A stretch of 64,000 nucleotides of DNA from assembly GCA_944392785.1 (NCBI GenBank), contig CALXXW010000004.1:247-64246 (forward strand), read 5' to 3'. A program made the position numbers and the translations under genes. Of this stretch, positions 4,131 to 62,319 are shown one piece after another. This DNA is from an uncultured Alphaproteobacteria bacterium (GTDB lineage Bacteria > Pseudomonadota > Alphaproteobacteria > CAAHEQ01 > UBA3637). Below the pieces are notes generated by a model. That model was not told the origin of the DNA. It ran no database searches and saw nothing but the letters and a program-made list of their open reading frames with translations. Every line of letters starts with the position of its first letter. Position 1 is the stretch's first letter.

Positions 4131-4138
4131 GAGAAAGT

Positions 4139-4489
4139 ATGTCCAGATTAGTAGAATTAGAAAAATTAGCTGAATTAAAGAAAAAGAAAATCTTGTCCCA
4201 AGAGGAATTTGAACAACAAAAAAAAGCTCTGTTAGCCGAAAATCTGAGAGAAGTAGAGAAACCGGCGGCTAAAAGTCGATTGGCTTATTTGCTGTTGGCT
4301 TGGTTTTTGGGCGTTTTGGGTATCCATAATTTTTATATCGGACGGAATGGTGTCGGACTGGCTCAACTGCTGATTACCTTATTGACGGGGATATTTATTC
4401 TTCCCTTAATTGTGGTGGGTATATGGGTTTTGATTGAGATGGTCACGATTACTCGAGATGCCTCTGGACAGCCGATGAGTTGGCCATAA
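4139..4489 (+). CDS. SHOCT-like plus TM2-domain membrane protein (short paralog)
   Basis: 116 aa with the same architecture as the preceding gene (ELEKLAELKKKKILSQEEFEQQKKALL, then LAWFLGVLGIHNFYIG). RBS AGGAGAAAG upstream. Confidence 0.45.
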   Translation: MSRLVELEKLAELKKKKILSQEEFEQQKKALLAENLREVEKPAAKSRLAYLLLAWFLGVLGIHNFYIGRNGVGLAQLLITLLTGIFILPLIVVGIWVLIEMVTITRDASGQPMSWP

Positions 4490-8109: not shown

Positions 8110-8138
8110 TTGACAAAAAAGGTTTTTTTATGTATAAT
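8110..8138 (+). promoter_or_regulatory. Near-consensus sigma70 promoter (TTGACA, 17-nt spacer, TGn-TATAAT)
   Basis: TTGACA at 8110-8115 and TATAAT at 8133-8138 with an upstream TG (extended -10). The ORF-track start at 8110 is simply the TTG of the -35 box. Confidence 0.6.
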
Positions 8139-8169
8139 AGACTGGAATAAGTCAGAAGCGGAGGTCAAA

Positions 8170-13010: not shown

Positions 13011-13039
13011 TTGACAAAAGCGTAAAAAAAGTGTAAAAT
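13011..13039 (+). promoter_or_regulatory. Sigma70-like promoter (TTGACA, 17 nt, TAAAAT)
   Basis: TTGACA at 13011-13016 and TAAAAT at 13034-13039, upstream of the ATG at 13083, which has an AAGGGGAAA RBS. Confidence 0.5.
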
Positions 13040-13082
13040 GACGGCATGTTCACCATTCAAGTTATATAAGGGGAAAATAAAG

Positions 13083-17264: not shown

Positions 17265-20200
17265 ATGACAGAAAAACAAAAATACTATCCGGAATTAACG
17301 GCTAAAATCAACTTTCCCGAGATGGAAAAAGACGTCTTGGCTTTTTGGCAGAGCGATCACACATTTCAAAAATCGGTTGATAATCGCTCCTGCGCTGAGG
17401 AGTTCACTTTTTATGACGGTCCGCCGTTTGCTAACGGTATGCCGCATTATGGGCATATTATGGTGTCTTATGTGAAAGATACCATTGCACGGTTTCAAAC
17501 CATGTTGGGTAAGCGTGTGGAACGTCGATTGGGATGGGATTGTCACGGATTGCCTGCAGAAATGAGCGCTGAAAAGCAGTTGGGCGTTTCTGGGCATAAG
17601 GCCATTGAAGAATACGGGATGTCGCGTTTTAATGATTTTTGCCGTCAAGACGTGCTTAAATATGCCGATATTTGGGTGACGATGTTGAAGCGTATCGGTC
17701 GTTGGGTTGATTTTGAACATGACTATAAAACAATGGACCTACCGTTCATGGAGTCGGTTATTCATAATTTTAAAGAATTGTATGATAAGGGATTGGTCTA
17801 TGAAGGTTATCGGGTGCAACCTTATTCATGGGCAGCACAAACACCCGTGTCAAATTTTGAGGTGAATCAAGCGTATCGTGATAAAACGGATACGGCTATT
17901 ACTGTTATGTTCCGTCTTGAAAATGGGTTGAATTTGTTGGCGTGGACAACAACACCGTGGACATTGCCTTCCAATCAAATGCTGGCGGTCGGGGCCGATA
18001 TTGATTATGCCGTGATGGCCGAAGGTGATGAAAAATATGTTTTGGCTGAAGCCTTGTTGGATAAATATAAGCCGCAATTACAACATGCCACGCGTGTCGG
18101 TACACTGAAAGGATCTGAATTGGTGGGATTGTCATATGAGCCGCTGTTTCCCTATTTTAAAACATGGGCCGAGAAAGGGTGTTTCCGCGTGATGGCGGCT
18201 GATTACGTCTCGGTTGAAGATGGAACGGGTATTGTCCATATTGCCTCAGGTTTTGGCGAAGATGATTTTAATGCGTGCCTAGCGTATGATAAAAATTTTC
18301 CGATTTTGTGTCCGGTGGATGAGGCCGGGTGTTTTACGGGTGAAGTCAGCGACTATGCCGGTATGCAGGTTTTTGATACCAACGAGTTAATCATAGCTCG
18401 CCTCAAAGCCGAACGTAAATTGGTTAAAAAGGAGCAGATTACACACAGTTATCCTTATTGTTGGCGGACGGATACGCCGTTGATATATCGTGCCATGGAT
18501 AGTTGGTTCGTGCGCGTGGAGGCTATTAAAGAGCAAATGCTGGCGGCCAATCAGGAAATTACGTGGACACCGGACCATATTAAAGACGGTCGATTCGGAA
18601 AAGGTTTGGAATCTGCGCCGGATTGGAATATCTCACGCAATCGTTTTTGGGGAGCACCGCTGCCTGTCTGGAAATCAGATAACCCTGCTTTCCCTCGCGT
18701 AGATGTGTTTGGTTCTGTTGCCGAAATTAAAGAAAAAACAGGCTGTGATGTGGTCGACTTGCATCGACCTTATATTGATGAGGTCGTTTATCCGAATCCG
18801 GATGATCCCTCTGGAAAAACGATGATGAGACGGGTGCCTTATGTCTTTGATTGCTGGTTTGAATCCGGATCGATGCCCGAAGGACAAATTCACTATCCCT
18901 TTGAAAAAAAAGCATGGTTTGACAGCCATTTCCCCGCCGATTTTATTGTGGAGGGAATTGATCAAACACGAGGATGGTTCTACTCGCTGCATGTGTTGGG
19001 AGTTGCGTTGCATGGTAAGCCTGCCTACAAACATTGTTTGGCAACGGGGCTTTTGATGGCAGAAAGTGGTGTCAAGTTGTCGAAAAAACTCAAAAATTAT
19101 CCGGATCCGTATGAGGTGTTGGATACGATTGGGTCGGATACTCTTCGGTGGTTCCTCCTGTCATCGCCGGCCGTCAAAGCCGGGCAGGCTTACGTGAATG
19201 AAAGGGAAATCACCAAGGCGACACGTAAAGCGGTTTTACCCCTTTGGAATGCGTATTACTTCTTCTGCCTGTATGCCAATGCAGAAGGGTTAAAAGCTGA
19301 GATGATATCAACTTCAACAGATGTCTTGGATCGGTATATTTTGGCTAAATTACGTCGTCTGTCCGAGGTGGTTAAAAAGGCGATGCTGGCCTATGATATG
19401 AATACAGCTTATGCCGAATCGGCGGAATTCTTAGATATTTTAAATAATTGGTATATTCGTCGGTCTCGGGCTCGTTTCTGGGATGGAACAGATGTTCAAG
19501 CGTTTAACACGCTTTATACGGTTTTGGTTTATTTGACTCAAATCATGGCTTCGTTGATGCCGATGTTGACAGAGTTTATTTATCGCGGCTTGACCGGTTG
19601 TGAATCCGTACATTTGACAGATTATCCCGATTTGTCGTCTATTCCGTTTGATACGGATTTAATCGCCGAAATGGATTTAGTGCGTATGATTTCTTCAACG
19701 GCCAAATCAATGCGTGAGGAGCATAAACTACGCAATCGATTGCCTTTGGCCTCTATGACTATTGCCGGGAAAAAAGCCACTCAACTGGCTTCTTTCAAAG
19801 AAGTTTTAAAAGACGAGGTGAATGTCAAAGAGGTTATTTTAACAGATGACATTGCAGCGGTGGCCACAACATTCCTGTATTTAAAAACACCTTTAATCGG
19901 CAAGCGATTAGGACGCTTCATGGGGGCAATCATGGCCGCACATAAAGCCAATATCTGGCAGCTTCAGTCGGATGGGACGCTGTTGATTGCCGATCAAATA
20001 CTTTTACCGGAAGAGTTTGAGTTGCGCCTTGTTTTAAAAGAAGGCTTGGACGGTCAACCTTTACCGGATAATACGGCGGTTATTCAGTTGGATACAACCG
20101 TGTATCCCGAGCTGGAACGTGAAGGAATCGCACGCGATTTTGTGCGTTTGGTTCAAACACGCCGTAAAGAAAGCGGTTTAGATATCTTAGATACCATTCA

Positions 20201-23209: not shown

Positions 23210-24535
<1,326 letters not shown>

Positions 24536-24545
24536 TAGGGACATA

Positions 24546-24581
24546 TAAAAAAACACCCTCCGGCCGAAGGGTGTTTTTTTT
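24546..24581. terminator. Bidirectional rho-independent terminator between eno (+) and the TrbC-like gene (-)
   Basis: AAAAAAA-CACCCTCCGGCCGAAGGGTG-TTTTTTTT. It is flanked by an A-run on one side and a T-run on the other. Confidence 0.75.
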
Positions 24582-24590
24582 GTGAAGAGC

Positions 24591-24932
24591 TTACTCCAAT
24601 GTATCAGCAAAATTAGAGCCGGTAAAATCAGAGACAGAGCCGCTGGTATTCGTTGTGGCATAGTCCACAATGGCACCGGCGATAGCCACGATTGCCAAAC
24701 CGACACCCAAAGCGGCTAACCATTTCCAGTTGATTTTTCCGAAAATGGCTGCTGCGCCAAGACCTACCAAACCGAAGCCGCCCAATACAAAGATAACGGC
24801 ACGAGCGTTTTTAAACGTATCCGTCATTTTCGAAATCACGGTTCCAAAGGCGTCTTGAGCATTGGCACCTGTTGCCGTGAAAACCAAGGCAACCAAGCCG
24901 AACAGAGCCAAGTATTTTAGATATTTTGTCAT
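24591..24932 (-). CDS. TrbC/VirB2-family type IV secretion pilin-like protein (orphan)
   Basis: 113 aa. A Sec signal peptide (cleavage after ANA) is followed by two hydrophobic helices separated by a short basic loop (GKINWKW) and a short Ser/Thr-rich C-terminal tail. This is the classic VirB2/TrbC topology and size. Confidence 0.55.
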   Translation of the reverse strand: MTKYLKYLALFGLVALVFTATGANAQDAFGTVISKMTDTFKNARAVIFVLGGFGLVGLGAAAIFGKINWKWLAALGVGLAIVAIAGAIVDYATTNTSGSVSDFTGSNFADTLE

Positions 24933-25129
24933 GTTAATTCTCCTTATATAAGTTTAATTAATGGGGGACAGAATTCTATCCCTTAAGTTTATAATACACC
25001 TTTTTTCCGGCTTGTCTAGATTTTTTTAGGAAAAAGCATAAAAAAACTGTTTTTTGTTAGTAAAAAATTAAAGAATTGTCATTTATGATGTGAATAGCTT
25101 ATTGTATCTTTCGCGAAAAGGAATATAAA

Positions 25130-26107
25130 ATGGTTCAAAAAAATGTCTTGATACATGCTTCTTTCCTGTGTTTAGTGGTGTTGTTAAGCGCTCATGTTCG
25201 AGCCGATGGGGATCCCGTCGAATTTGTGGGTGAGGCGCAGGAATTGCAGCCAGATGAGCAGCTTGAAACCGCCGAAGATGCGATTGCAACGGTGACGGCG
25301 GACGGAGAGTTTTTATTGCCTTCTTACATTGTTCCGACAGAGCCGCTAAAAAACACCGCTTCGGAAAAGACTGCACCGCGTATCACGACAGAAAAACGCT
25401 CAACCGTTCCCGTCGGGCGCACCATTAAGACAACAACCGTGCGGACCGAATATGTGCCGGCAGATGCCGAGGTTCTGGCTAAGTTAGGCATTCCGCCGCC
25501 GAGTACTCCTGTGTTGTTAGATATGGGAAAGTCTGTTCCTATGGCTCAGGGAGGGGCATCATCGGCTCCGTCTTTAAACGGACAAAGACCGATGGAAAGG
25601 CCGAAAGCTAAAAAACCTTTGCTGATTCCGATTGCCGCTGAGGCCGAGATTGTTCAGGAAGAGGATATGCCTTTGCCGGTTTCCAATCGTCCTGCACTTA
25701 ATTCGGCCTATGCCGATCGTATCTTAGAAGATTTTACGCAAAACGGCACAAGTACGTTGATGCCTCACGAGATGAAAGTGACATTTTATCCCGGAGAGGC
25801 CTCTTTTTCAGGACACTCATTGAAGTGGATTCGTGCGTTTTCCAATGCCGCTATGTATGATCCTCGCTTGGTTCTCGAAATACGGATGAGTCGAAATGAG
25901 ATGCCGTTGCAGTATAAGCGGTTGGCTATTTTGCAAAATGCTTTGACGGGCGCGGGGCTTTCAACGCATCAGATGCAGGTGAGCTTTGTTAATCGTCCGA
26001 CGGATACGCTGTTGCTTCGCAATATTAAGCGGCCGGAGCCGACAGAGGTTATTCAGAAAAATACGCAAAAAAAAGTGAAAAAACAAACAAAAGCGGTGAA
26101 ATGGTAA
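25130..26107 (+). CDS. Secreted acidic protein of unknown function; first gene of the secretin/ATPase cluster
   Basis: Signal peptide MVQKNVLIHASFLCLVVLLSAHVRA, then an acidic low-complexity region and a C-terminal ~110-aa globular region. No confident family assignment. Confidence 0.4.
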   Translation: MVQKNVLIHASFLCLVVLLSAHVRADGDPVEFVGEAQELQPDEQLETAEDAIATVTADGEFLLPSYIVPTEPLKNTASEKTAPRITTEKRSTVPVGRTIKTTTVRTEYVPADAEVLAKLGIPPPSTPVLLDMGKSVPMAQGGASSAPSLNGQRPMERPKAKKPLLIPIAAEAEIVQEEDMPLPVSNRPALNSAYADRILEDFTQNGTSTLMPHEMKVTFYPGEASFSGHSLKWIRAFSNAAMYDPRLVLEIRMSRNEMPLQYKRLAILQNALTGAGLSTHQMQVSFVNRPTDTLLLRNIKRPEPTEVIQKNTQKKVKKQTKAVKW

Positions 26108-26175
26108 AAGAAAAACAATTTGTGCTTGTATAATTCCAAAAAATAACGTATGGTGAAGCAAGAAGGAGTATGAAC

Positions 26176-27180
26176 ATGATGCAAAACAAATTAATAAAGG
26201 CTGTTCTTCCGGGCATTTTTGTGGCGTCGTTCTGTGTGGTGGGTTGCACGCGTATGCAGACGGATGAAGTGTATTATGATGAAGCTTATTATGAAGATGA
26301 AACAGCTCCTGTTCAACTGGAAGAAAATGACTATTCTTGCGGAGCGGATGATGATTGCTTGCTAACCAATGATGATGGTTTGTTTCTGACGGAAGAATTT
26401 ACAGAAACTTATGTCGTTTCGCAACCCGGTACGTTGATGGTTGATACCTCTGCTCCGGTGAACATACCGACGACCATGCGTCCCGCGGAAAAAGCTATTG
26501 TGACGAACGGTGAGATATCTGCTTCACGACCGGCCGCCATGAAAGCAACGGCCGTGAAAGATAAGGTTGTATCACAATCAGAAACGGTATCAGAGAAGCC
26601 TTCCTCTCAGGGGAGTGTGACGACGGTGGCTTCTGTCCCTCTCGTTGAGGAGACGACGACAACGGAAGTTATTGAAAAAGAAGCGCCACCCGCACCGATT
26701 CCTCTGGTCAAAAAAATAACAACGACGAAGGTTGTTGAGTCGGATGTTGTTGCAAAATCCGAACCGGCTCGAAAAGTGGTGACGACGGTTTCTGAAAAGA
26801 AGACAACATCGCGTATCGATGCTAAAACAGGTGAGAAAATTGAAGTGAAAAAGGAGGAGAGCTCCATTACGGCCGAAGGAACAACTTTAGCGTCTCGTGT
26901 GGCTTATGGGGAAGAAGTCCATGAATGGGAAGCTATTCCGGGAACAACGTTGAGGGCTCTTTTGCTGGAGTGGGGTGAAAAATCCGGATGGACCGTGATT
27001 TGGAAAATGGATCGCGATTACTTGTTAGAGGCCGGAGTTGTCTTTCGAGGAACGTTTATGGAGGTTGCGGGTGCTTTGGTTCGCTCTTTTGCTCGTGCCG
27101 TACCGGCTCCGATCGGAACGTTCTATCAAGGAAACCGTGTCTTGGTTATCAATACGCAGGAGGATGAGAATGCGCACTAA
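26176..27180 (+). CDS. Lipoprotein with a C-terminal TcpQ/PilL-like domain (type IVb pilus secretin-associated lipoprotein-like)
   Basis: Lipobox FCVVGC after a signal peptide (start at 26176, 7 nt after AGAAGGAG). Thr/Val-rich linker. The C-terminal EWEAIPGTTLRALLLEWGEKSGWTVIWKMDRDYLLEAGVVFRGTFMEVAGALVRSF matches the conserved block of the TcpQ/PilL domain as recalled. The size matches R64 PilL. Confidence 0.5.
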   Translation: MMQNKLIKAVLPGIFVASFCVVGCTRMQTDEVYYDEAYYEDETAPVQLEENDYSCGADDDCLLTNDDGLFLTEEFTETYVVSQPGTLMVDTSAPVNIPTTMRPAEKAIVTNGEISASRPAAMKATAVKDKVVSQSETVSEKPSSQGSVTTVASVPLVEETTTTEVIEKEAPPAPIPLVKKITTTKVVESDVVAKSEPARKVVTTVSEKKTTSRIDAKTGEKIEVKKEESSITAEGTTLASRVAYGEEVHEWEAIPGTTLRALLLEWGEKSGWTVIWKMDRDYLLEAGVVFRGTFMEVAGALVRSFARAVPAPIGTFYQGNRVLVINTQEDENAH

Positions 27181-28816
27181 TATAGCTCGAATTATTTTGT
27201 TATCCGGTGTTTTGTGCGGTTTTGTGTCGTTAACGGCGTGTAATAAGTATGTGGATAAAACAAATAAAAAAATAGAAACAATTTATGAACAGGCTGAAAC
27301 ATATCGTGATGTGGCGCGAATTCCTGATTTACCCGAGCCGGTGGATACTGTTCGGATTCAAAATGATATTTGGTTGGGAACCAGCAGTTCTAAGATTACG
27401 GAGGGAGACCCATTACCGGCAGCGTTGGAAAAAGACGATGGTGTGACGATTTCTTTAGCCGGTGAGGTCACTTTACCGATTTTGGCTCAAGAAATCATGG
27501 ATGTGACACATATCGTCGTGCGTTTGGATGATTTAAAGTCCGAAAACGAAATTCCTGAAAATACCTTACCGGTGAATTATTCCGGAAAGCTGAGTGGTTT
27601 GTTAAATTATATTGCGAATAGATATGGTGTGTGGTGGAAGTATCAAGGGGGTATTATTACCTTTTTTACCAAAGAAACACGTGTCTTCACAATTTATGCG
27701 CTGCCTACGGAAACAAGCCTTTCGGCTACGTTGACCGGTGCCTCTATGGGAGAAAACTCTGGGGGGGGGAGCGCCTCATCATCCTTGAACACATCGGCTA
27801 ATCTGTCTTTGTGGGATAATATTGAGGAAGGAATTAAACAGATCGTCGGTGAGAATGATAAAGTATCGTTTAGTCGTGTCGCCGGAACAGTGACGGTGAC
27901 GGCTAGTCCCTTTGTCATCCGGAAAGTCGGACAATATGTGGCTAACTGGAATGAAAAACTATCGCGACAGGTCGCTATTTCTGTGAAAGTTCTACAGGTC
28001 TCTTTAACGAACGAAGATAGCTATGGTCTTGATTTGCGGCTGGCGTTTAATTCGAATAAGTTAGGTTCTTCCTTTTCAAGTCCCTATTTCATTGATGCAG
28101 CCGGTGGCGGTGCAACAGGTAGCGTTGGTTTGTTGTCTATGGCTCTGTTAGATCCCGGGTCCCGTTGGAAGGATTCACAATCAATCATTCAGGCCTTGTC
28201 AACTCAAGGAAAGACTTCTCTCGTGACCAGTACAAGCGTGACAACTTTGAATAATAAAGTGGCTCCTGTTCAGATTTCAACGGCCCAGAATTATGTGAAG
28301 GAAACCAATGTGACAACGTCCGGTTCCGGAACAGATCGTAGTACGGAAGTCGATATGGATACGGACACGTTAAATTACGGATTCACGATGGAAATTTTAC
28401 CTCGCATTTTAGATCACGGTCGTTTGATTGTTATGTTCTCATTGACATTGACGGATCTGTTGTCTCTGGATCAATTTTCATCGAATGATGGTCTGCAAAC
28501 ATCTGAAGATTCTTCCGACGAAGAAGATACCGAAGAAGAAACCGGAGATCGAGAGTCCACGATTGTTCAGTTGCCTAAGATGCAAATGCGCGGCTTTATT
28601 CAGGAAATTGCCATGCGTTCGGGCTCAACATTGGTCTTGACCGGTTTTGAAAGTGCCAATGATACGACGGATACGGCCGGTATCGGTAAGGCAAAAATGG
28701 GTATTTTGGGCGGTAAAGCCTACAGTTCAAACACGCGGGATGTTATGGTGATTTTGATGACGCCTGAGGTATTACAGTCACCGCTGTCACCCGAAGCCAG
28801 AATGAGGAATTTTTAA
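27170..28816 (+). CDS. Secretin-family outer-membrane channel, lipoprotein type (BfpB/TcpC/PilN-like)
   Basis: Start ATG 27170 overlaps the upstream stop. Lipobox LTAC. N-terminal secretin domain, then a C-terminal secretin core (SLVTSTSVTTLNNKVAPVQIS..., LNYGFTMEILPRILDHGRLIVMFSL, STIVQLPKMQMRGFIQEIAMRSGSTLVLTGF, RDVMVILMTPEVLQ). Confidence 0.75.
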   Translation: MRTNIARIILLSGVLCGFVSLTACNKYVDKTNKKIETIYEQAETYRDVARIPDLPEPVDTVRIQNDIWLGTSSSKITEGDPLPAALEKDDGVTISLAGEVTLPILAQEIMDVTHIVVRLDDLKSENEIPENTLPVNYSGKLSGLLNYIANRYGVWWKYQGGIITFFTKETRVFTIYALPTETSLSATLTGASMGENSGGGSASSSLNTSANLSLWDNIEEGIKQIVGENDKVSFSRVAGTVTVTASPFVIRKVGQYVANWNEKLSRQVAISVKVLQVSLTNEDSYGLDLRLAFNSNKLGSSFSSPYFIDAAGGGATGSVGLLSMALLDPGSRWKDSQSIIQALSTQGKTSLVTSTSVTTLNNKVAPVQISTAQNYVKETNVTTSGSGTDRSTEVDMDTDTLNYGFTMEILPRILDHGRLIVMFSLTLTDLLSLDQFSSNDGLQTSEDSSDEEDTEEETGDRESTIVQLPKMQMRGFIQEIAMRSGSTLVLTGFESANDTTDTAGIGKAKMGILGGKAYSSNTRDVMVILMTPEVLQSPLSPEARMRNF

Positions 28817-28836
28817 AAAGGGAGTATAAAAACAGG

Positions 28837-30165
28837 ATGGTGGATCAACAAAATCCGACGCAGACACGTCCGCAGACGCATGCGGAAATGGTTGCTCAAG
28901 CCAGCCAGTCAGGAACAGTTGTTATTGACGGGATGCGCTATGCTGTCGGTTTAATGTGGTTGCCACTTCAGAATCTGGATGATCCGATTCCCGAGATTCG
29001 TGAAACGATGGATAGTGAACCCGGTGCAGACTACTACTGTTTGCGCACGGGGGCAGCGCCGCAGTATGGTATTGCTAAAAGTTCGATGGGGCATATGGAA
29101 AATGAACCCTCATTGGCGGCGGCTGTTGCTTCAGCTTTGTCCGATAAAACTTCGGTTTGTGCCGTTTTTAAGGTAGATGAAGGATATTGGTTTGTCGCCA
29201 TTCGAAATGACTTAATCCTATCTGAAGAGGACATCCTTTTCCATACGGAAGAAGAAGCAAAACGTGCCTTTTTTTCCATGATGGCCGTGCCGGATTGGGG
29301 CATAAAAATTGTTCCGGCTTCATGGCATATTGAAGGAACAGAAGAGCGGGATTTGGCCGCGTTGATAAAAAATAGCCGTAAAGTTCGTTTGGTCGAATTA
29401 AGCACGGCGAAAAAAACGCAAATTTTGCTTTTCGTTTCTCTGGTTATTTTGGCTCTGTTGGGCGGTGCGGTCTATTTAATCTATTCGTTGATCAAGGTTG
29501 CGTGGACACCCGAAACTATACCGGTTATGCCGACCCCGGAAGTTGTTAAACCTGTTGAGCCGGTTATTCCCAAAGCAAAGCCGTGGGAAAAGGTGGTTCA
29601 AGTGGATGCTTTGTTGAGTCGTTGTTGGAATAATACATATCAATTAACATCGGTCTTTATTCCTTGGTGGAAAATGGGGACGGTTGTCTGTACTCCATCG
29701 GGTATCCAAACGACATGGACTCGTACGGGGGATCCGGGTAAGCGATTGGCATGGTTAAAATATGCCATCAAAGATTATCAATTTAACCGATTGGAAATCA
29801 AGCCGATTTCAACAACGCAAGCCGAAGGAAAATTACCGTTTGCCGATATGCCGATGATTTCAACGGCTCCGACCCTGACCGTTGAGCAGTTGCAGGAAGA
29901 GTTGCATGAAATTACGGATGCGACAGGAATGCCTATTGCTTTTTCGGAGCAAACGGTTTTGGATCCGCCTAATAATGCAGATGGATCGGCGCCTCCGAAT
30001 CAACAAGTATATCACTTTTTTTCCTTTACCATTAATTCGGAATATACGCCATGGGAATGGAAGACGTTTTTTGATAAATTTACGGGATTGGAATTGTTAA
30101 AGCTGGAATATGCACCGGGTAATCAAAATAAGTGGAAGTATGAGGGGAGAATCTATGCCAAATAA
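28837..30165 (+). CDS. Bitopic inner-membrane assembly protein (cytoplasmic N-domain, one TM, periplasmic C-domain); BfpC/PilO-like by architecture
   Basis: 442 aa with a single TM helix near the middle (ILLFVSLVILALLGGAVYLIYSL). Its position and size correspond to pilO of R64 or bfpC. No sequence-level family call is possible by eye. Confidence 0.4.
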   Translation: MVDQQNPTQTRPQTHAEMVAQASQSGTVVIDGMRYAVGLMWLPLQNLDDPIPEIRETMDSEPGADYYCLRTGAAPQYGIAKSSMGHMENEPSLAAAVASALSDKTSVCAVFKVDEGYWFVAIRNDLILSEEDILFHTEEEAKRAFFSMMAVPDWGIKIVPASWHIEGTEERDLAALIKNSRKVRLVELSTAKKTQILLFVSLVILALLGGAVYLIYSLIKVAWTPETIPVMPTPEVVKPVEPVIPKAKPWEKVVQVDALLSRCWNNTYQLTSVFIPWWKMGTVVCTPSGIQTTWTRTGDPGKRLAWLKYAIKDYQFNRLEIKPISTTQAEGKLPFADMPMISTAPTLTVEQLQEELHEITDATGMPIAFSEQTVLDPPNNADGSAPPNQQVYHFFSFTINSEYTPWEWKTFFDKFTGLELLKLEYAPGNQNKWKYEGRIYAK

Positions 30166-31057
30166 AACATTGACTTTTGTGATGAGCCTAGTAATAGGTA
30201 GTTTATTTCTGAGCGCAGGTGTGAAAGCTCAAACGGCAGAACCCGCACCCAGCTCGGAGTCTGTGGATGTTCAGGCAGCTGAAGCGGCGGCTAAAGAGGC
30301 GTTGAATAATGAATTGGCGACACCGACACTCACCGATAAAACAGCGGTTGATTTTCCTAATCGTCAGAATTTAGGAACTCAGGAATTGGCCGTTTTACCG
30401 GGTATTAATGAAACCGATATGACCGGTCCATCTCCGATGGCTATTTCGGTCTCAAAAAAAGATTTGCCCAGTGAACAATTGATTGGGAAAATTACACCGG
30501 AAGTGTTTCAAGAAATGGCCGATATTGAACGAGCCAGTACATTTTTGCGCTTGCAAAAACAAAAAGAGGAATTGAAAAATGATCTCGAACGTACCAGAGC
30601 CATGTATCGTCAGTCGCGTCTGGAAGAAATCGCTAAACGCGAAGAAGTGGTTAAAGAGCGTATTAAATGGTGGCAAGAACAAGAAGAACTTCGAGAAGAG
30701 TTACGTCAGAAAAAGGCCGAAACAGAAAATATAGAACAACGGATTGAGGAAGAAAAAGCCCTTCGTGAAGAGCTACGAAAAAAGGCTTTGCAACGTCGTG
30801 AAACGGCCGAGACCAAGGGGACAACGGAGGAAGTGACGGAAGAAGTCGGATTTGTCCCAACAACATATGTTTTAATGGGGGTTCGCGGGATGAGTGATAC
30901 GTTGATGGCGCAATTGCAGGATGCTGATACACAGGCCGTCATTACCGTTAAGAAAAATGATGTTTTACCCTCAGGGTATGTCGTTTCTGAAATTACGAAA
31001 GACTATGTGATTATCTCTTACGGAGATTTACAAACGCGCGTTGGATTTAATCAGTAA
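30155..31057 (+). CDS. Periplasmic or membrane-anchored coiled-coil protein of the cluster
   Basis: Start at the Met behind the strong RBS GAGGGGAG. Signal/anchor KTLTFVMSLVIGSLFLSAGVKA. There is a long charged coiled coil (EELKNDLERTRAMYRQSRLEEIAKREEVVKERIKWWQEQEELREELRQKKAETENIEQRIEEEKALREELRKK). Confidence 0.4.
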   Translation: MPNKTLTFVMSLVIGSLFLSAGVKAQTAEPAPSSESVDVQAAEAAAKEALNNELATPTLTDKTAVDFPNRQNLGTQELAVLPGINETDMTGPSPMAISVSKKDLPSEQLIGKITPEVFQEMADIERASTFLRLQKQKEELKNDLERTRAMYRQSRLEEIAKREEVVKERIKWWQEQEELREELRQKKAETENIEQRIEEEKALREELRKKALQRRETAETKGTTEEVTEEVGFVPTTYVLMGVRGMSDTLMAQLQDADTQAVITVKKNDVLPSGYVVSEITKDYVIISYGDLQTRVGFNQ

Positions 31058-31091
31058 AGAGGGGGGATAGGTTTGTTATCCTTGGGAGCTT

Positions 31092-33401
31092 ATGTTGTGG
31101 GATGATGAAGAGGCAAAAAAGGCTGCCGCCAGTTTATCAGGCGAGGTATCAAAAAAGCCCGATAAAAAATCGGATGCGATAGAGGCATCGGATATTCCGA
31201 CAGCCGAACGCTTGCCGCAAGAGATGCCTTCGTTTTTAAAAGCATCGGAAACATCTTCTCAAGAGCCGCTTTCTTCTTTTGTCCCACCACCTCAAATTCC
31301 GCATGTATCAGAACATATCGCAGAAACGAATCATAAGGAAAACGAGCCTTTGACCGAGCCGTCATCTTCTGCATTGCAGATATCAGATATAGCCCAACAA
31401 AAGCCAGAGAGCTCTCAACCGATTGGGCCTATGCCGAGGGTAGCTGAACCGAATAAAGAACAGGATCAGCCCTTGTCTTCTGTGGCTGAATCCCCTGAGG
31501 TGATACCAGCCGATCCGGGCGAAGACGTGCCGGCCGTGGTGGCGCCGTCGGATGCTTCCCTTAAGCCCGAACAGAAAGATACTGCTATTTCTTTGTCGGA
31601 TCAGGCCAGATTGGGAACGACACAAGCTCCGATGAATCCCTCATCAGATAAGTCGATTTTGGCTGACAAAGAGACATTGCTTGATGCGATAAAAGCGGAA
31701 AAAACAAAGGAAGAGAGTGAGTCATCGTCCAATGGAAAGATGTCTTTTGGACACCCGGCTGATGATATTATTGTCTCGGATGTGCAAGCAGCTGCCGCGG
31801 CTGAACAGACAAAGACAGATTATACTTCAAATACTTTTTTAAAAGAGCTATTCGCAGATGGGAATGAATGTGTGACGGCTATTAACGGTTCGTTCCCTAT
31901 CAAGGAAGATACCCGTTCTTTATTGGCGTTATTTTCCAATGGCCGTTTTTTTGTCTCCGAATCGGCTAAATTTGACGGTAAGGTGTTAGGTTTTCAATAC
32001 CAGGCAAAAAAACGCCGCTTACAAATCGGGAAGCCGGAGTATGTTCCGACAATTATTTTAAATGACATCTATGAGTATGCTCTTCAGGTAAAGGCGGCTA
32101 GTACCAAAGTTGATATATCGGATGCACAGGAACAGGCTCGGATGCAGCGTGATTTTGTGACAATTGTCACACGTGCTGCGGCTAATCATGTGTCAGATAT
32201 CCATATCGTTGTCGCCGACCACTCAACAGTTATGTTTCGCATTAACGGATTGATGCAAACGGAAATGGAATATACTAAAGAGTGGGGTGAAAGTTTCGTG
32301 CGCGCGGCTTTTGCCTCATCAGATATTTCTGATTCGAACTATGCTCAGAATGAATACCAGGCGGCTCAAAAACTTGGTCGGACACCGCTCAGAGGCTCTA
32401 ACGGACGTCTGTTATTGCCCAGGAACGTGTTGGGTATCCGATTGCAATTTAACCCTATTGCTTTTGGAACACGCTATGTCGTTATGCGTCTTCTGTATGC
32501 GGAAGACGATGCCACTTCAGCCAGTGATTTAGAAGTCCTAGGATTTACAAAAAGAGAAACGGGACTGTTTTATCAATTACGTTCGGAACCAACCGGTATT
32601 GTGATTGTTTCGGGGCCAACGGGATCTGGAAAGTCAACGACTTTGCAGCGTAATATGATTGCCATGTTGCAAGAGCATAATTATGAAATTAACTTGATTA
32701 CGGTGGAAGATCCGCCGGAATATCCTATTCCCGGAGCGCGTCAAATGCCGGTGACTAATGCTACGTTGGAGGAGGAAAAAGATAGAGAGTTCAATAAAGC
32801 CTTGGCGGCAGCTTTACGGTCGGATCCCGATTCATTGATGATCGGTGAAATTCGAACCTTATCTGCAGCTGACTTGGCTTTTCGGGGAGCATTGTCGGGA
32901 CATAATGTTTGGACAACCTTGCATGCCAATAGTGCGGCGGCGGTGATTATGCGTCTGAAAGATATGGGGGTTGAGGATTTTAAATTGCAGGATCCCAGTA
33001 TTATGAGAGGGATGTTAGCACAACGTTTGTTTCGAAAACTTTGTCCGCATTGTCGGATTAAAGCGGCTACGAATCCGACTCATCCCGCCGTGCAGCGATT
33101 GGAGCGAGCTTTGGGGGATGTCGCATTGGATTTGGCGTATTTGCGAGGCCCGGGCTGTAAAGAATGTGATTTTCGAGGAGTCAGCGGTCGTACCGTGGTT
33201 TCTGAATTTATTCTGCCGGATGCCACCTTTTTGGATTTGATGGTTAAGGGAGAAGTCAATAAGGCCATGAGCTATTGGTTAAATGATTTGAATGGTCAAA
33301 CATTACGTGAGGCGGCTATTTCTCGTATGTTGAACGGGATTATTGATATTGAAGAGGTTGAACACTGGACCGGTTTCTTGGATCAACAGCTTTTGATATA
33401 A
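31092..33401 (+). CDS. GspE/PilB-family secretion ATPase (type II / type IV pilus assembly ATPase) with ~330-aa disordered N-terminal extension
   Basis: Walker A VSGPTGSGKSTT. Asp box and Walker B motifs. His box TTLHAN. A C-terminal tetracysteine zinc motif CPHCR...CKEC. The N-terminal third is Ser/Pro/Glu/Ala-rich low complexity. Confidence 0.8.
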   Translation: MLWDDEEAKKAAASLSGEVSKKPDKKSDAIEASDIPTAERLPQEMPSFLKASETSSQEPLSSFVPPPQIPHVSEHIAETNHKENEPLTEPSSSALQISDIAQQKPESSQPIGPMPRVAEPNKEQDQPLSSVAESPEVIPADPGEDVPAVVAPSDASLKPEQKDTAISLSDQARLGTTQAPMNPSSDKSILADKETLLDAIKAEKTKEESESSSNGKMSFGHPADDIIVSDVQAAAAAEQTKTDYTSNTFLKELFADGNECVTAINGSFPIKEDTRSLLALFSNGRFFVSESAKFDGKVLGFQYQAKKRRLQIGKPEYVPTIILNDIYEYALQVKAASTKVDISDAQEQARMQRDFVTIVTRAAANHVSDIHIVVADHSTVMFRINGLMQTEMEYTKEWGESFVRAAFASSDISDSNYAQNEYQAAQKLGRTPLRGSNGRLLLPRNVLGIRLQFNPIAFGTRYVVMRLLYAEDDATSASDLEVLGFTKRETGLFYQLRSEPTGIVIVSGPTGSGKSTTLQRNMIAMLQEHNYEINLITVEDPPEYPIPGARQMPVTNATLEEEKDREFNKALAAALRSDPDSLMIGEIRTLSAADLAFRGALSGHNVWTTLHANSAAAVIMRLKDMGVEDFKLQDPSIMRGMLAQRLFRKLCPHCRIKAATNPTHPAVQRLERALGDVALDLAYLRGPGCKECDFRGVSGRTVVSEFILPDATFLDLMVKGEVNKAMSYWLNDLNGQTLREAAISRMLNGIIDIEEVEHWTGFLDQQLLI

Positions 33402-33425
33402 AGGTATTGGAAAAAGGAGTACAGC

Positions 33426-34571
33426 ATGGATAGTATCCCGCAGACAAAAATTCCTCAAAAACGTAAAAGCAGTATCGGAGAAAGTGCCGGTCAGATCGGT
33501 TCACGCTTGAATTATTGGTATGCCAGATTGATGGTCCGGTCGATCACTTCTGATAGATTGGCGGTTTATCGTAAACTATCCGCATTATTGCGCAATCGAT
33601 TTTCATTGATGGATGCCTTGGATCGTCTGCATCAAATTGCTTCAAAAGATGGGAAAAATCCGGATGATACTATGGCTATTGCTATTCATGAATGGGTTAA
33701 GTCGATTCAAAACGGTGAATCTTTCTCGGTAGCGTTAAGAGGGTGGGCGCCGCCAACAGAGCTTTTAATGCTTTCGGTCGGTGATATTGCGAATTTAGAG
33801 TTGGCCTTGGATAATACCGTTAACGTCGTTGAGGGAATGAATAAAATGAAAGGACCCGTTGTAAATGCCATTGCCTATCCCTCTTTCTTGATTTGTATGG
33901 TTTTATTTTTAATTTACGGCGTTGGTCGTTGGATGGTTCCTCCGATGGTTGATGCTGTTCCCGGTATGGTTTGGACGGGATTGGCAAAGTCTTTGGTTGA
34001 CTTGTCGTATTTTGTGGCGGATTATACGATTTTATTCTTTGCGGCACTGCCGGTCCTTTTTTTGATTGTTCTCTTTTCGTTTCCCCGCTGGCGAGGAAGA
34101 TCAAGGACTATGGTTGAAAATGTTCCGCCATGGTCTATTTACCGGATTTTTATTGGTGTCGGTTGGTTGTTATCTTTGGCCGCTTTGGTGAAGGCGGGAA
34201 CACCGGTTTCTAAGGCTATGCGCTCTTTGCGAGCCGATGCTTCGCCGTATTTGCTGTATCGAATCGACAGAACGCTTATTTACATCAATAACGGTGACAA
34301 CTTGGGTGATGCTTTATATCGAACCGGACTTAAATTTCCGGATGAGGAAGTCGTGGGCGATTTGCGAATTTACGCGGAGTTGGATAACTTTCAAGATGCT
34401 TTGGAAAGTTTGGCTCAGGATTGGCTCAAGAACTCGATTCGTGATATTGAGCAAAAGGCGGCTATCTTAAACGGGGTTGCCATTCTGTTGATTGCGGCTG
34501 TGGTGGCTTGGGTTGTTATGGGAACGTTTGCCATGCAAGAACAAATGGTCTCTGGGATGGGTGTCGCGTAA
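33426..34571 (+). CDS. GspF/PilC-family inner-membrane platform protein
   Basis: 381 aa with two repeats of a cytoplasmic helical domain followed by TM helices. It sits immediately downstream of the ATPase. RBS AAGGAG. Confidence 0.65.
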   Translation: MDSIPQTKIPQKRKSSIGESAGQIGSRLNYWYARLMVRSITSDRLAVYRKLSALLRNRFSLMDALDRLHQIASKDGKNPDDTMAIAIHEWVKSIQNGESFSVALRGWAPPTELLMLSVGDIANLELALDNTVNVVEGMNKMKGPVVNAIAYPSFLICMVLFLIYGVGRWMVPPMVDAVPGMVWTGLAKSLVDLSYFVADYTILFFAALPVLFLIVLFSFPRWRGRSRTMVENVPPWSIYRIFIGVGWLLSLAALVKAGTPVSKAMRSLRADASPYLLYRIDRTLIYINNGDNLGDALYRTGLKFPDEEVVGDLRIYAELDNFQDALESLAQDWLKNSIRDIEQKAAILNGVAILLIAAVVAWVVMGTFAMQEQMVSGMGVA

Positions 34572-34709: not shown

Positions 34710-35270
34710 ATGGAGTATGCACAAGTAAAACAAGACATGCAAGCACATCTGTTGAAGACAGAAGCGGCTTTAAAAAAAGAATTTGCTGGTTTGCGAACCG
34801 GTCGTGCGACAACCGCATTGCTGGATGGTATTATGGTGGAAGCTTATGGGGCCGTTTCTCCGTTAAATCAAATCGGAAGTGTCTCTGTCCCGGAGGCTCG
34901 GATGTTATCCGTACAAGTGTGGGATAAGTCGCTGTTGAAAGCGGTTGAAAAAGCCATTATGGAATCAGGCCTGGGACTGAACCCCATGAACGATGGTCAA
35001 ATGATTCGCATCCCTATCCCCCCCTTGTCCGAAGAGAGACGTATTGAACTGACTAAAATTGCCGGTAGATATACGGAAACAGCTCGTGTCTCGGCCAGAA
35101 ATGTGCGTCGGGAAGCTTTGGATGCCGTGAAAAAAATGAAGGCGGATAATGTGATCTCTGAAGATGATCAAAAACGCTATGAAACCGAAATCCAGGGCAT
35201 GACCGATAAAACGATAAAAGTTTTAGACGATATGTTAAAAGCTAAAGAAATAGAAATCAAACAAGTATAG
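34710..35270 (+). CDS. frr: Ribosome recycling factor
   Basis: 186 aa. [47 protein letters not shown]... is the canonical RRF sequence. Confidence 0.9.
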
Positions 35271-38927: not shown

Positions 38928-40328
38928 TTATCGAGTTCTTTTTTTCTGTTTCGTATCCGCCATAGGTAATAGAACCATGGCGCGCAATCCCCCCATGGGA
39001 CTATCCTCTAAATGAATATCCCCCCCATGAGATAAAATGATGTCACGTGTAATGGTCAGGCCTAATCCAACACCGCCGGTTGCTGGATTCCGAGAGGGAT
39101 CCAATCGAAAAAAAGCTTTAAAGACATCGCGACGTTTGTCTTTTGGAATACCAGGGCCATCATCATCGATAATAATTTGAGCCATGGCTCCGCGAATGCC
39201 GAGGGAGATATACGTATGCTGAGCATAGCGTCCGGCATTTGTGATTAAGTTGTTGAGGGCTCGACTTAAATCTGTGTTGCGAGCTAATAGAAAAATATCT
39301 TGTTCGGCATGAATATCAATAAATTGTCCGCCTTTTTTCAGTTTATCCACGATTCCGCAGACCAAATTGACCAATGAAATTTGTTGAGGCTTTTCTTGCC
39401 CTTCACCACGAGCAAAAGCCAAATATCCTCCCAACATTTGCTCCATTTCGGTAATATCCGCCAGCAAATCGGTGACATTTTCATTTGGCTCCATCATCGA
39501 CAGCTGCAGCTTCATGCGCGTTAAGGGCGTTCGCAAGTCATGTGAAACGCCGGCCAGCATGGCCGTCCTCTCGGTTAAATAGCGTTGGATACGATTTTTC
39601 ATCTGGAGAAAAGAAAGCCCGGCTTGTTTGACTTCTGTTGCTCCTTCCGGTTTAAAGGGCTCATCCTTCCCCAGCCCGAACAGCTCAGAGGCACGTGACA
39701 ATCGTTCTATAGAGCGCACTTGATTCTTCATAAATAAAAACGCAATCAAGAAAAATAACATGGAAAAGCCAACCAGCCATACCATAAAAACATAAACGGT
39801 TGAGCTGAAAAAACGCTTCCGAGGAACTCGGACACTCAGAACGCCTTTGTTCAACTGGATATTGATTTGTTGTTGTCTATCGTTTGCGTCCAACATCTGT
39901 GTTGGGTAGGGCAGTTCTTTAAGTGCCTGAAACAGAGGTGTTGTCACTTGGTTTAAATCGGTTGTTTTGTGCGGTATAAGAGTTGCTTTGCTCTGAAAGG
40001 TTATATCCAAATTTAAGTTTTTCTCCAGAAGCTTTAAAAAGGTTGTAATGCGTTCGGGGTCTGCCGTCGTTTCATCCAGCAGTGTGGCAATAGACGAGAC
40101 CTCTCCCACAACATCGGCAGCCAAACGACGACTAATGGTATCCCAATGGCGATTGAAAAAAAAGTTAAAGGCGACAGCTTGTAGCAATACAAGAGGTAAA
40201 AGAATAATCAACACAAAACGGTATAGTAAACTTTTGGGCATAATAGCATGCTTGATGGTACGTATCAGATCATACCCGAAAACCGATAGTGTTTTGATAA
40301 CATTTTTCAAAGAAAGTTTATGTGTCAT
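38928..40328 (-). CDS. Sensor histidine kinase (EnvZ/ChvG-like), two TM segments
   Basis: H-box VSHDLRTPLTRMKLQ. N/G-box HATPase motifs (ITNAGRYAQ, DDDGPGIP, GGVGLGLTI). The start is set at the Met overlapping the response-regulator stop (ATGA overlap); the track ORF extends further upstream. Confidence 0.75.
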   Translation of the reverse strand: MTHKLSLKNVIKTLSVFGYDLIRTIKHAIMPKSLLYRFVLIILLPLVLLQAVAFNFFFNRHWDTISRRLAADVVGEVSSIATLLDETTADPERITTFLKLLEKNLNLDITFQSKATLIPHKTTDLNQVTTPLFQALKELPYPTQMLDANDRQQQINIQLNKGVLSVRVPRKRFFSSTVYVFMVWLVGFSMLFFLIAFLFMKNQVRSIERLSRASELFGLGKDEPFKPEGATEVKQAGLSFLQMKNRIQRYLTERTAMLAGVSHDLRTPLTRMKLQLSMMEPNENVTDLLADITEMEQMLGGYLAFARGEGQEKPQQISLVNLVCGIVDKLKKGGQFIDIHAEQDIFLLARNTDLSRALNNLITNAGRYAQHTYISLGIRGAMAQIIIDDDGPGIPKDKRRDVFKAFFRLDPSRNPATGGVGLGLTITRDIILSHGGDIHLEDSPMGGLRAMVLLPMADTKQKKRTR

Positions 40329-40999
40329 TTGGTAATCAAGGTATATCCTTGTCCTCGAACAGTTTGAATACAAAGCGGTATTTTAATATCATCTTCGATT
40401 TTTTTGCGTAGACGTGTGATCTGCACATCAACGGTGCGCAAGTTATCGGTATCAATCAAGTGTCCCAATTCTTCCCGAGAAACGATCTCTCGCGGTCTGC
40501 TGACAAAAATTTTTAACAGGGCTTGTTCCGCGGTCGTTAGTGATATGGGCTGCCCGTCTTTCAAGAGAATCCCGGCTTTTGTCTGATATATACACGAGCC
40601 AAAATAGATATCTGTCTCCTCTTGTTCAGATGCTTGTCGCTTCAACAGATTTTTCAATCGTAAAATAAGCTCCCGTGGCTCGAATGGTTTGGATAAATAG
40701 TCATCTGCGCCGGCTTCTAGCCCCGTAATACGATTATCAATATCACCCATGGCGGTTAACATAAAAATCGGAGTCGTGATACCTCGTTCACGTAATTCTT
40801 TTGTGAAATCTTGCCCATTTTTATGCGGCATCATAACATCCATAATAATCACATCAAATTGAAAAAGAGTTAAAAGCTCATCTGCTTCATCAGGCAGAGA
40901 AGCCTCGGCTACTTGAAAACCATTTTCACTGAGGTATTTGTGTAAAAGGTGTCTAAGGCGCGTATCATCATCTACAACGAGGATATGTGCTTGCGTCAT
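40325..40999 (-). CDS. OmpR-family response regulator (ChvI-like)
   Basis: Receiver domain ILVVDDDTRLRHLLHKYL...DVIIMDVMMP. C-terminal winged helix ...TVRGQGYTLI. Confidence 0.8.
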   Translation of the reverse strand: MTQAHILVVDDDTRLRHLLHKYLSENGFQVAEASLPDEADELLTLFQFDVIIMDVMMPHKNGQDFTKELRERGITTPIFMLTAMGDIDNRITGLEAGADDYLSKPFEPRELILRLKNLLKRQASEQEETDIYFGSCIYQTKAGILLKDGQPISLTTAEQALLKIFVSRPREIVSREELGHLIDTDNLRTVDVQITRLRKKIEDDIKIPLCIQTVRGQGYTLITK

Positions 41000-43899: not shown

Positions 43900-44330
43900 T
43901 TGTCAACATATTTTTTAACCTCTTTTTAATATTTTTATATCACTGTTGAAATATAATCTTTTTTTTGTGTGAAAGAAGAGATTTTTTTGTTTTGGTTAAA
44001 AAAAGAAAATCAGATTTCCTTTCATTTTTTTGGCAGAAATTAACGAAATATATGAACGAATCAATGATTCTAAATATCAAATTGAAATATAAATATTTTT
44101 TTATTTTTTATGGTAGAGATTCGCTTTGCGATAAAAAAGAACAAAAGAATAACACTCGAATGAATGAAAAATAAAATTGTTTTTTGCTATCAATGATATA
44201 TCATGATATGAAATGGTGTGTTGAACTATATATTGATGTTTAAAAACTAGATATAGGGTCAAGAAGTTTGTGTAAAAAAAAAAGAAAAAAGAGGGTTGCT
44301 TTTTGTTTTTTATTTTTTTATGATAGCCCC
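43900..44330. other. Extremely AT-rich intergenic region upstream of dnaA; candidate replication-origin/DNA-unwinding region
   Basis: ~430 bp of >80% A+T with A/T runs directly 5' of dnaA. No convincing TTATCCACA boxes were found by eye. Confidence 0.25.
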
Positions 44331-44360
44331 ATCAATTCACTTCAGATTAAAGGGTATGAA

Positions 44361-54980: not shown

Positions 54981-55018
54981 AAAAACGGTCTTGCTTTTTG
55001 ATAAGGGGACTTGTATAA

Positions 55019-59523: not shown

Positions 59524-59526
59524 GTT

Positions 59527-62263: not shown

Positions 62264-62319
62264 TCCATTCTGTTAATAGGTTGTATGTAGCAGAATTTAA
62301 TTCGAAAATCAAGTATTTT

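Follow-up and report, generated by a model that had tools for sequence, protein, structure and literature searches.

A probable R64-type type IVb pilus assembly operon with a conserved VirB2-like neighbor in the core chromosome of uncultured gut Alphaproteobacteria

We analyzed a stretch of 64,000 nucleotides (the window) from the genome of an uncultured Alphaproteobacteria bacterium (assembly GCA_944392785.1, contig CALXXW010000004.1), which comprises almost all of its 65-kb contig. Positions 24591-34571 of the window contain a seven-gene co-directional operon (25130-34571, plus strand) and, divergent from it, a gene encoding a VirB2/TrbC-like pilin (24591-24932, minus strand). We conclude, with a probability of roughly 0.78, that the operon is the core assembly operon of a chromosomal type IVb pilus (T4bP) of the R64 thin-pilus class, which uses pilins of the PilS/bundlin type, and that its pilins and presumably its prepilin peptidase are encoded elsewhere. 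All genes that an earlier, preliminary description had placed in this region were found there with strong family support. The gene order proposed in that description, resembling PilL-N-O-P-Q-R of R64, was upheld by Pfam and NCBIfam matches and by the same order in T4bP loci of Bosea, Thalassospira, and Salmonella.

The genes of the operon are tightly packed and partly overlapping, and encode ORF1, PilL, the PilN secretin, PilO2, a putative PilP, the PilQ ATPase, and the PilR platform protein. Family assignments were obtained for six of the seven proteins as well as for the VirB2-like protein. PilL (26170-27180, plus strand) is a lipoprotein (lipobox VVGC) with a C-terminal TcpQ domain (PF10671, 2e-16, 60.3 bits against a gathering score of 27). 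The C-terminus of PilL is 40% identical to that of the Bosea T4bP PilL and 30% identical to the Salmonella R64-type PilL. The outer-membrane channel is a lipoprotein secretin of the PilN family (27164-28816, plus strand), which contains a lipobox and matches PF00263 above the gathering score. The secretin scored 281.8 bits with TIGR02520, the model of the PilN-family type IVb secretins, and 29 bits with GspD. Over the full length, it is 28-29% identical to the PilN proteins of the Bosea (29%), Thalassospira, and Salmonella (28%) T4bP loci. Its start is most likely the ATG at 27164 (MRMRTNIARIILLSGVLCGFVSLTAC, lipoprotein signal), from which the gene overlaps pilL by 17 nt like its counterparts in the relatives, and not the TTG at 27038.

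PilO2 (28837-30165, plus strand) is a bitopic protein resembling BfpC and GspL, with a cytoplasmic domain, one transmembrane helix, and a periplasmic domain. It matched PAP_PilO (PF06864) at 2.6e-22 (79.7 bits, gathering score 26.7) over profile positions 2-419 of 419, and is 23% identical to the PilO proteins of both Bosea and the Salmonella R64-type locus. Proteins of the PF06864 family adopt an actin-like ATPase fold and are confined to the R64 variant of T4bP (PMC3984277). The protein in the PilP position (30155-31057, plus strand) has a signal or anchor segment, a long coiled coil, and a C-terminal beta domain. Its start is most likely 30155, giving 300 amino acids, the start called on a 99%-identical contig. 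This protein had no Pfam or NCBIfam match. Aligned with hhalign to a profile of three PilP sequences (Salmonella, Bosea, and Thalassospira), it gave an E-value of 3e-5 and a probability of 73% over the C-terminal 57 columns only, and the comparison with the GspC HR domain was non-significant (E 0.95).

The last two genes encode the motor. The assembly ATPase PilQ (31092-33401, plus strand, 769 aa) belongs to the GspE/PilB family (PF00437, 5.7e-70, 236 bits) and has a Walker A motif (GPTGSGKST) and a tetracysteine motif (CPHC...CKEC). It is 38% identical to the Bosea PilQ and 31% identical to the Salmonella R64-type PilQ. The inner-membrane platform PilR (33426-34571, plus strand) belongs to the GspF/PilC family (PF00482, 1.2e-23, 84 bits) and is 36% and 30% identical to the PilR proteins of Bosea and Salmonella, respectively. 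Residues 1 to about 340 of PilQ (window 31092-32100) form a Pro/Ser/Glu-rich extension that is probably disordered. The length of this extension varies widely among relatives (proteins of 570-1,019 aa), and the C-terminal 430 amino acids are 66-84% identical. The first gene of the operon, ORF1 (25130-26107, plus strand), encodes a secreted or periplasmic protein with a signal peptide, an acidic low-complexity middle part, and a C-terminal domain with an OmpA-like peptidoglycan-binding fold. ORF1 had no family match, and a profile search against PDB sequences was also without match.

Among annotated proteins, the secretin was best matched in the T4bP loci of two alphaproteobacterial plasmids, pANAM02 of Bosea and one of Thalassospira, and in enterobacterial R64-type and bundle-forming pilus (BFP) loci. 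The Bosea, Thalassospira, and R64-type loci have the order TcpQ-PilN-PilO2-PilP-PilQ-PilR, which the operon of the window matches with its putative PilP.

To place the operon in its lineage, PilQ relatives were scanned in one genome per species. Relatives were found in 337 genomes, and 80 loci (denoted by L numbers) were fetched, nearly all of them recorded as metagenome-assembled genomes of uncultured Alphaproteobacteria from the gut or rumen, one being 'Acetobacter sp. CAG:977'. About 2,000 homologs of the ATPase with 75-80% identity were found in metagenome-assembled genomes of gut Alphaproteobacteria. Across the 80 species loci, the order ORF1-PilL-PilN-PilO-PilP-PilQ-PilR was invariant wherever the locus was long enough, while the flanking genes varied. 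By the identity of the PilQ C-terminus to that of the window, the loci form group A (75% or more; some 55 loci) and group B (66-73%).

The ratio of non-synonymous to synonymous substitution rates (dN/dS) was well below 1 for all eight genes. It was 0.01-0.1 in most pairs for PilN, PilQ, and PilR (PilN range 0.006-0.24), 0.05-0.4 for ORF1 and PilL, and 0-0.4 for the VirB2-like gene, for which two close pairs had a dN of 0 at a dS of 0.12-0.22. Purifying selection thus acts on all genes, and a degenerating locus, which the preliminary description had considered, is excluded.

The operon lies between eno (23234-24535) and frr (34710-35270), the latter followed by uppS. The remainder of the window is core chromosome, including ileS, gltX, tpiA, dnaA, tsf, rpsB, tolQR, ruvAB, and dnaB, and the GC (guanine plus cytosine) content of the operon is the same as that of its surroundings. 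The dnaA gene (44268-45752) lies 10 kb downstream of the operon, which puts the pilus operon near what is probably the origin of replication. Within the window, cumulative GC skew climbs steadily to about 46 kb and is then flat.

We searched the window for prepilins and a prepilin peptidase. A class III signal regex applied over all starts found no prepilin in the 64 kb. In its strict form, this regex requires [FMLIVAST] at position +1 and misses the pilins of the clade, which have Arg at +1. A relaxed six-frame regex that accepts these pilins, combined with tblastn using clade pilins, also found none in the window. A hidden Markov model (HMM) of 120 clade pilins gave only a 21-bit artifact on the TM2/SHOCT protein at 3405-4130. 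No Peptidase_A24 was found among the scanned open reading frames (ORFs) of the window, with the ABC-transporter-looking ORFs at 56265-63420 lying outside the Pfam scan. The absence of a prepilin from the window, reported in the preliminary description, thus stands, as does that of a peptidase for the ORFs scanned.

The relatives, by contrast with the window, carry class III pilins, and for the lineage the pilin-less machine of the preliminary description is not supported. The pilins have a nearly invariant N-terminus (...[S/Q]G↓RSM[V/I/L]EMLGV[L/I]A[I/V][I/V]G..., arrow at the cleavage site). They are located directly 3' of pilR in seven loci (L030, L051, L052, L054, L055, L057, and L061, the last fragmentary) and about 5-8 kb downstream of pilR, also put at 7-9 kb or more, in others (L018, L032/34/36, L045, and L053). 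A profile of the clade pilins retrieved at least 7,999 proteins, nearly all with PF08805 (PilS) and often with PF05307 (Bundlin), some of which are named 'type 4 pilus major pilin [Alphaproteobacteria bacterium]'. The HMM of clade pilins also recognized the pilin of the Thalassospira plasmid T4bP locus. On long contigs, clade pilins occur as single genes or pairs amid housekeeping genes, with several per genome. In the basal members L055 and L061, the pilin is followed by a PilT-like ATPase, as in Bosea. The ancestral arrangement is the canonical one, with a pilin following pilR, and the sub-lineage of the window has most likely dispersed its pilin genes.

Larger pilin-headed proteins were also found. 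PilV-like proteins of 570 and 1,024 aa (G↓ALMVEAIALLGL...) occur in L054 and L067 and are homologous to the protein in the PilV position of the Bosea locus. In L097 (12443-18297), two proteins of about 1,000 aa headed by a pilin sequence directly follow virB3-virB4 on the same strand. These giant proteins (450-1,024 aa; L097 12443-18297, L054 12606-13961, L018 17468-20173 on the minus strand, and L067 13019-16093) have Cys-rich EGF or ephrin-receptor-like repeats or no known domains. The Cys-rich proteins are likely adhesins displayed on the pilus, at its tip. Type IV pilins normally have F, M, L, or S at +1. The clade pilins have Arg after the cleavage Gly (L030, L032, L045, L051-L057, L097, and others; mature N-terminus RSM(V/I/L)EMLGV...), which may imply a peptidase of special specificity.

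The pilin of the window's genome is likely distally encoded, since the window is nearly the entire contig. Of the three alternatives in the preliminary description, a distally encoded pilin is the one that we favor. The arrangement had also been regarded as not described before, which does not hold: R64-variant operons vary in organization, are chromosomal in the Burkholderia pseudomallei Tfp7 system, and lack the peptidase in PAPI-1 and Tfp7 (PMC3984277), and the T4bP model of MacSyFinder is multi-locus and treats the peptidase as a loner (PMC6668835). We infer that the window's genome encodes pilins, peptidase, VirB3, and VirB4 at other loci.

The divergent gene at 24591-24932 encodes a VirB2/TrbC-type pilin of 113 aa. 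The protein has a Sec signal peptide (...ANA↓QD), a helical hairpin of two transmembrane helices, and a conserved C-terminal F-x-DTL motif, and it matched PF04956 with 36.6 bits (gathering score 27.9). All 436 retrieved homologs carry PF04956, and those of the clade are up to 43% identical to the annotated VirB2 of a P-type type IV secretion system (T4SS) of Microvirga. The mature two-helix core is almost invariant. The AlphaFold2 model shows the signal helix and the hairpin, with a predicted local distance difference test score (pLDDT) of 67. A profile search of this protein against PDB sequences was without match, and Foldseek found no significant match to the model, whose fold is a simple hairpin.

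The identification of this gene as a TrbC/VirB2-type pilin in the preliminary description was thus borne out, but its description as an orphan was not. The gene is located immediately upstream of ORF1, in divergent orientation, in 49 out of 71 species loci. In group A, VirB2 alone adjoins the operon, with no VirB3 or VirB4. In group B, which branches more deeply, virB2 is the first gene of a divergent virB2-virB3-virB4 operon, back-to-back with the operon running from ORF1 to PilR, in nearly every locus that reaches far enough. The VirB4-like protein of group B is a true VirB4 (TIGR00929, 7e-106) with intact Walker motifs. Its nearest annotated relatives are encoded on plasmids of Microvirga, Sphingosinicella, and Erythrobacter, as parts of complete conjugative T4SSs of the P type. 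In the gut clade, virB3-virB4 form a two-gene unit followed by unrelated genes. The VirB2-like gene is tandem-duplicated upstream of ORF1 in L025, L041, and L055. In the close relatives L001, L004, L009, and L069, the VirB2 position is held by a secreted non-membrane protein of about 115 aa (MKIHNLILCSAVALA...) that is unrelated to VirB2. In L092 (3750-4928), a 392-aa truncated VirB3-VirB4 fusion paralog (VirB3 plus the CagE_TrbE_VirB N-terminal region) was located just upstream of the full virB3-virB4.

The VirB2-like gene appears to have its own promoter. A consensus scan identified a sigma-70-like element (TAGACA-16-TATTAT; 24991-25018, minus strand) with an A-rich tract upstream. The near-consensus element T(G/A)GACA-N16-17-TATAAT with an upstream A-tract is kept in the spacer of 21 relatives (plus-strand motif TTTGTCCAG[C/T]AC-T6). 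Just 3' of the stop codon, a pattern match indicated a terminator-like hairpin with a T-run (24556-24570, minus strand). The VirB2-like gene is most likely a conserved, separately transcribed neighbor, and its origin would be an ancestral operon of virB2, virB3, and virB4 that was divergent from the pil operon and directly next to it.

VirB3 and VirB4 were absent from the window, and stand-alone virB3-virB4 pairs occur in metagenome contigs. The distances of these pairs to groups B1 and B2 (56/48/51%) parallel those of the group A PilQ (73/68/69%). This indirect distance pattern suggests that the group of the window may keep VirB3 and VirB4 at another locus. When we tried to assign the stand-alone contigs to this group by housekeeping genes, too few were shared.

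Clade DNA amounting to 1.84 Mb, which covers about 1% of each genome, was probed by tblastn with all T4SS proteins of Microvirga and Erythrobacter. VirB2 was found in 55 loci, VirB3 in 29, and VirB4 in 46. No VirB5, VirB6, VirB8, VirB9, VirB10, or relaxase was found in this DNA, and the VirB11 matches were cross-hits to PilQ or PilT only. L063 contains a solo gene for a VirD4-type coupling protein (17622-19445; T4SS-DNA_transf, 2e-51), 7 kb downstream of pilR and separated from it by housekeeping genes including ileS, which hints at a scattered T4SS. In the Rickettsiales, the genes of the rvh T4SS are scattered in small groups among housekeeping genes. A scattered complete T4SS is plausible in the clade because of the solo VirD4 and this precedent.

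The VirB2(-VirB3-VirB4) link most likely goes back to a shared origin in an ancient conjugative element with both a T4bP and a T4SS, a combination known from IncI plasmids and PAPI-type integrative and conjugative elements (ICEs). The pilus and T4SS genes would have been inherited together from this element and then domesticated and scattered. By the mechanism established for type IV pili, prepilins bearing a class III signal (G↓RSMxEMLGV...) would enter the inner membrane and be cut by a prepilin peptidase whose gene lies elsewhere. PilQ, a hexameric ATPase, would then rotate the PilR platform, lifting pilins from the membrane into the growing filament. PilO2 and the PilP-like protein would couple the motor to the outer-membrane secretin PilN, through which the filament would exit. 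The PilL/TcpQ lipoprotein would support the secretin, and the lineage-specific ORF1 probably anchors the machine to the peptidoglycan via its OmpA-like domain. The dispersed pilin set of the lineage comprises small major-pilin-like genes and 450-1,000-aa pilin-headed Cys-rich adhesin-like proteins. The physiological role would be in adhesion and/or in contact for transfer.

Several points weigh against a T4bP of the R64 class with this origin. The secretin falls 6 bits under the curated PilN cut-off (287.65 bits), and the ATPase and the platform protein score below all equivalog cut-offs; these missed cut-offs therefore place the operon on a divergent branch. For the window's own genome, the DNA covered, nearly one whole contig, showed no pilin, peptidase, VirB3, or VirB4. 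The clade DNA sampled, about 1.9 Mb, likewise yielded no A24 peptidase: the peptidases of Salmonella and Thalassospira gave no match in it by tblastn, and neither did a scan for the GxGDxK motif, which is insensitive and also misses the annotated Thalassospira peptidase. Finally, the common origin from a conjugative element is an inference, and no relaxase, VirB6, or VirB8-10 was seen in the sampled clade DNA.

The link to VirB2 raises the question of whether the two systems work together. In a chimeric organelle, the VirB2 pilin, with VirB3 and VirB4 as membrane dislocase, would work physically with the T4bP-like envelope complex. Either a VirB2 filament or channel of the conjugation type, driven by VirB4, would pass through the PilN secretin in lieu of VirB7/9/10, with the secretin-based T4bP scaffold taking the place of the VirB6-10 core, or both filaments would be co-assembled for cell-cell transfer. 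The back-to-back position of VirB2 across an order-level clade, the purifying selection on it, and its conserved strong promoter are in line with such an organelle. In addition, VirB5, VirB6, VirB8, VirB9, and VirB10 never follow VirB3-VirB4 and are absent from the 1.84 Mb probed, and in L097 virB3-virB4 is followed by the two co-directional giant pilin-headed proteins. However, descent alone can preserve synteny, and the abundant bona fide type IVb pilins suffice for a T4bP machine. The small fraction of each genome sampled leaves room for a scattered VirB6-11 set as in rvh, to which the solo VirD4 points, and a VirB2 tube through a secretin is without precedent or structural rationale. We therefore consider a chimeric organelle, in both forms taken together, unlikely.

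The absence of a prepilin and peptidase from the 64 kb, and a group A operon that stops at pilR with unrelated genes next, could also indicate a secretion or uptake apparatus whose secretin, ATPase, and platform handle a substrate other than pilin. Against this, the close relatives L030 and L018 (76-77% PilQ identity) have pilins right after pilR or 5 kb downstream, and the pilin family of the clade is huge and dispersed over the genome. Moreover, all known GspE/GspF machines act on pilin-like subunits and belong to the type IV filament superfamily (PMC6668835). An apparatus without pilins is thus very unlikely as far as is known of such machines.

T4bP clusters are typically borne on plasmids or ICEs, and VirB3 and VirB4 are missing beside VirB2 in the group of the window, as might be expected if a pil region from a plasmid or an integrated conjugative element were decaying and had lost its pilin, peptidase, and T4SS genes. 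Such a remnant is highly improbable: the eight ORFs are all intact and full-length, with dN/dS of 0.006-0.4 in many species pairs, and the locus is conserved in 337 species genomes, with the GC content of its surroundings, in core chromosome near dnaA.

A misfiled type II secretion system (T2SS) or Tad (Flp) system, although suggested by the source names of ATPase homologs ('Flp pilus assembly complex ATPase component TadA' and 'GspE/PulE family') and by GspE as the top NCBIfam match of the ATPase, can be dismissed with near certainty, as the models GspE (245 bits, cut-off 630), GspF (48, cut-off 424), GspD (29, cut-off 351), and the TadA type (46, cut-off 373) were all far below their cut-offs, the secretin scored 282 bits on the PilN T4bP model against 29 on GspD, TcpQ and PilO2 are T4bP-specific, and the pilins of the clade are PilS/bundlin and not Flp pilins or pseudopilins. 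Both assignments, which the preliminary description had left as a way in which it could be overturned, were rejected since every specific model fails. The class III regex over all starts found no T2SS pseudopilins in the window. The database name 'TadA' for the ATPase homologs is a misnomer.

Several neighboring genes were noted. A pair of an OmpR-type response regulator and a histidine kinase is located 4 kb from the operon (38928-40999, minus strand). A response regulator/histidine kinase pair adjoins the VirB2-like gene in L002 (702-2725) and L086 (10954-13013), and a HisKA kinase is located upstream of a pilin in L118 (8510-9928). The OmpR-type pair may be a regulator of the pilus system. 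In the close relative L001 (13896-16864), pilR is followed by an ART-PolyVal (ADP-ribosyltransferase-like) gene, a gene of 465 aa, and an N6/N4 DNA methylase, which may be a toxin or defense islet. Elsewhere in the window, two neighboring paralogous SHOCT plus TM2 membrane proteins (241 and 116 aa; 3405-4489) lie beside tRNA-Arg and tRNA-His. ORFs without a Pfam family were found at 8110-9501 (463 aa), 13038-14078 (346 aa), 54805-56268 (487 aa), and 49270-50166 (298 aa). The last of these comes after tolQ-tolR and may encode a TolA analog.

Most of what is known about type IVb pili comes from enteric pathogens and, in Gammaproteobacteria, from conjugative plasmids and ICEs. The T4bP identity of the operon is itself ordinary. 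Here, a large lineage of uncultured Alphaproteobacteria from the gut and rumen has an R64-type machine as a strongly conserved part of its core chromosome, with a close PilQ relative in at least 337 species genomes and the full operon in every fetched locus that was long enough. The very large dispersed pilin repertoire, including giant adhesin-like proteins, points to host or cell-cell attachment as central biology. The VirB2(-VirB3-VirB4) link with no visible VirB6-10 core is either the trace of a conjugative element that was domesticated and scattered long ago or a hint that two filament systems cooperate. If true, the latter, chimeric form would unite VirB2-VirB3-VirB4 and a T4bP envelope machine in one organelle, chromosomally fixed in a whole order of gut Alphaproteobacteria. 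The results also show that, where pilus genes are scattered over the genome, little can be concluded from a locus that lacks a pilin.

In the literature searched, we found no description of a core, near-origin, lineage-wide T4bP in gut Alphaproteobacteria with massively expanded, dispersed pilins and Arg at +1, nor of an OmpA-like ORF1 in such an operon. The same search found nothing relevant on a hybrid or back-to-back link of T4bP and VirB2/3/4, or on pili of RF32 Alphaproteobacteria.

Among known systems, the operon has the PilL(TcpQ)-PilN-PilO2-PilP-PilQ-PilR core and order, its PilP being putative, in common with the R64 thin-pilus variant, comprising pilI-V of the IncI1 plasmid R64, the Salmonella pil locus, pilL-M of PAPI-1, and Tfp7 of B. 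pseudomallei. Further likenesses are the lipoprotein secretin, the PF06864 PilO2, and, in the lineage, PilS/bundlin-type pilins and large proteins that have a pilin head and resemble PilV. The peptidase is not in the locus, which is also true of PAPI-1 and Tfp7. However, the proteins of the window are only 23-31% identical to the enterobacterial ones, and the operon is without PilM, PilS, PilT (the transglycosylase), PilU, and PilV. It has an extra first gene, the OmpA-like ORF1, and a long, probably disordered N-terminal extension of PilQ. The pilins of the clade are many paralogs dispersed over the chromosome, with Arg at +1, and the locus belongs to the core chromosome throughout the lineage and not to a mobile element.

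The closest annotated relatives of the operon are the plasmid T4bP loci of Bosea sp. ANAM02 (pANAM02) and Thalassospira xiamenensis. The basal L055 and L061 share with Bosea the PilT-like ATPase and pilin after PilR, and the giant pilins of the clade are homologous to the Bosea protein in the PilV position. In contrast to the window, the two plasmid loci have pilins and a PilT-like ATPase in cis, in Thalassospira also the peptidase. They adjoin I-type T4SS genes (DotD/TraH and TraJ), with no VirB2 neighbor and no ORF1 homolog.

The VirB2, VirB3, and VirB4 proteins of the clade are nearest to those of complete P-type (VirB/D4) systems on Microvirga, Erythrobacter, and Sphingosinicella plasmids. 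As in rvh, the T4SS genes of the clade lie in small groups amid housekeeping genes, with a solo VirD4. They differ from both rvh and the VirB systems in that the DNA sampled shows the VirB2/3/4 triad and one VirD4 only, and in that the triad is syntenic with a T4bP operon, a synteny that to our knowledge has not been described for either.

A physical linkage of a T4bP gene set to T4SS genes is also found in the IncI plasmids R64 and TP114 and in the ICE PAPI-1. In elements of this type, the pilus is reported to stabilize mating pairs, including in the gut (PMC9045228, PMC5297154). Their T4SSs are I-type or GI-type, complete, with relaxases, and on mobile elements, whereas the link in the gut clade is to P-type VirB2/3/4 only and is fixed in the chromosome of a whole lineage.

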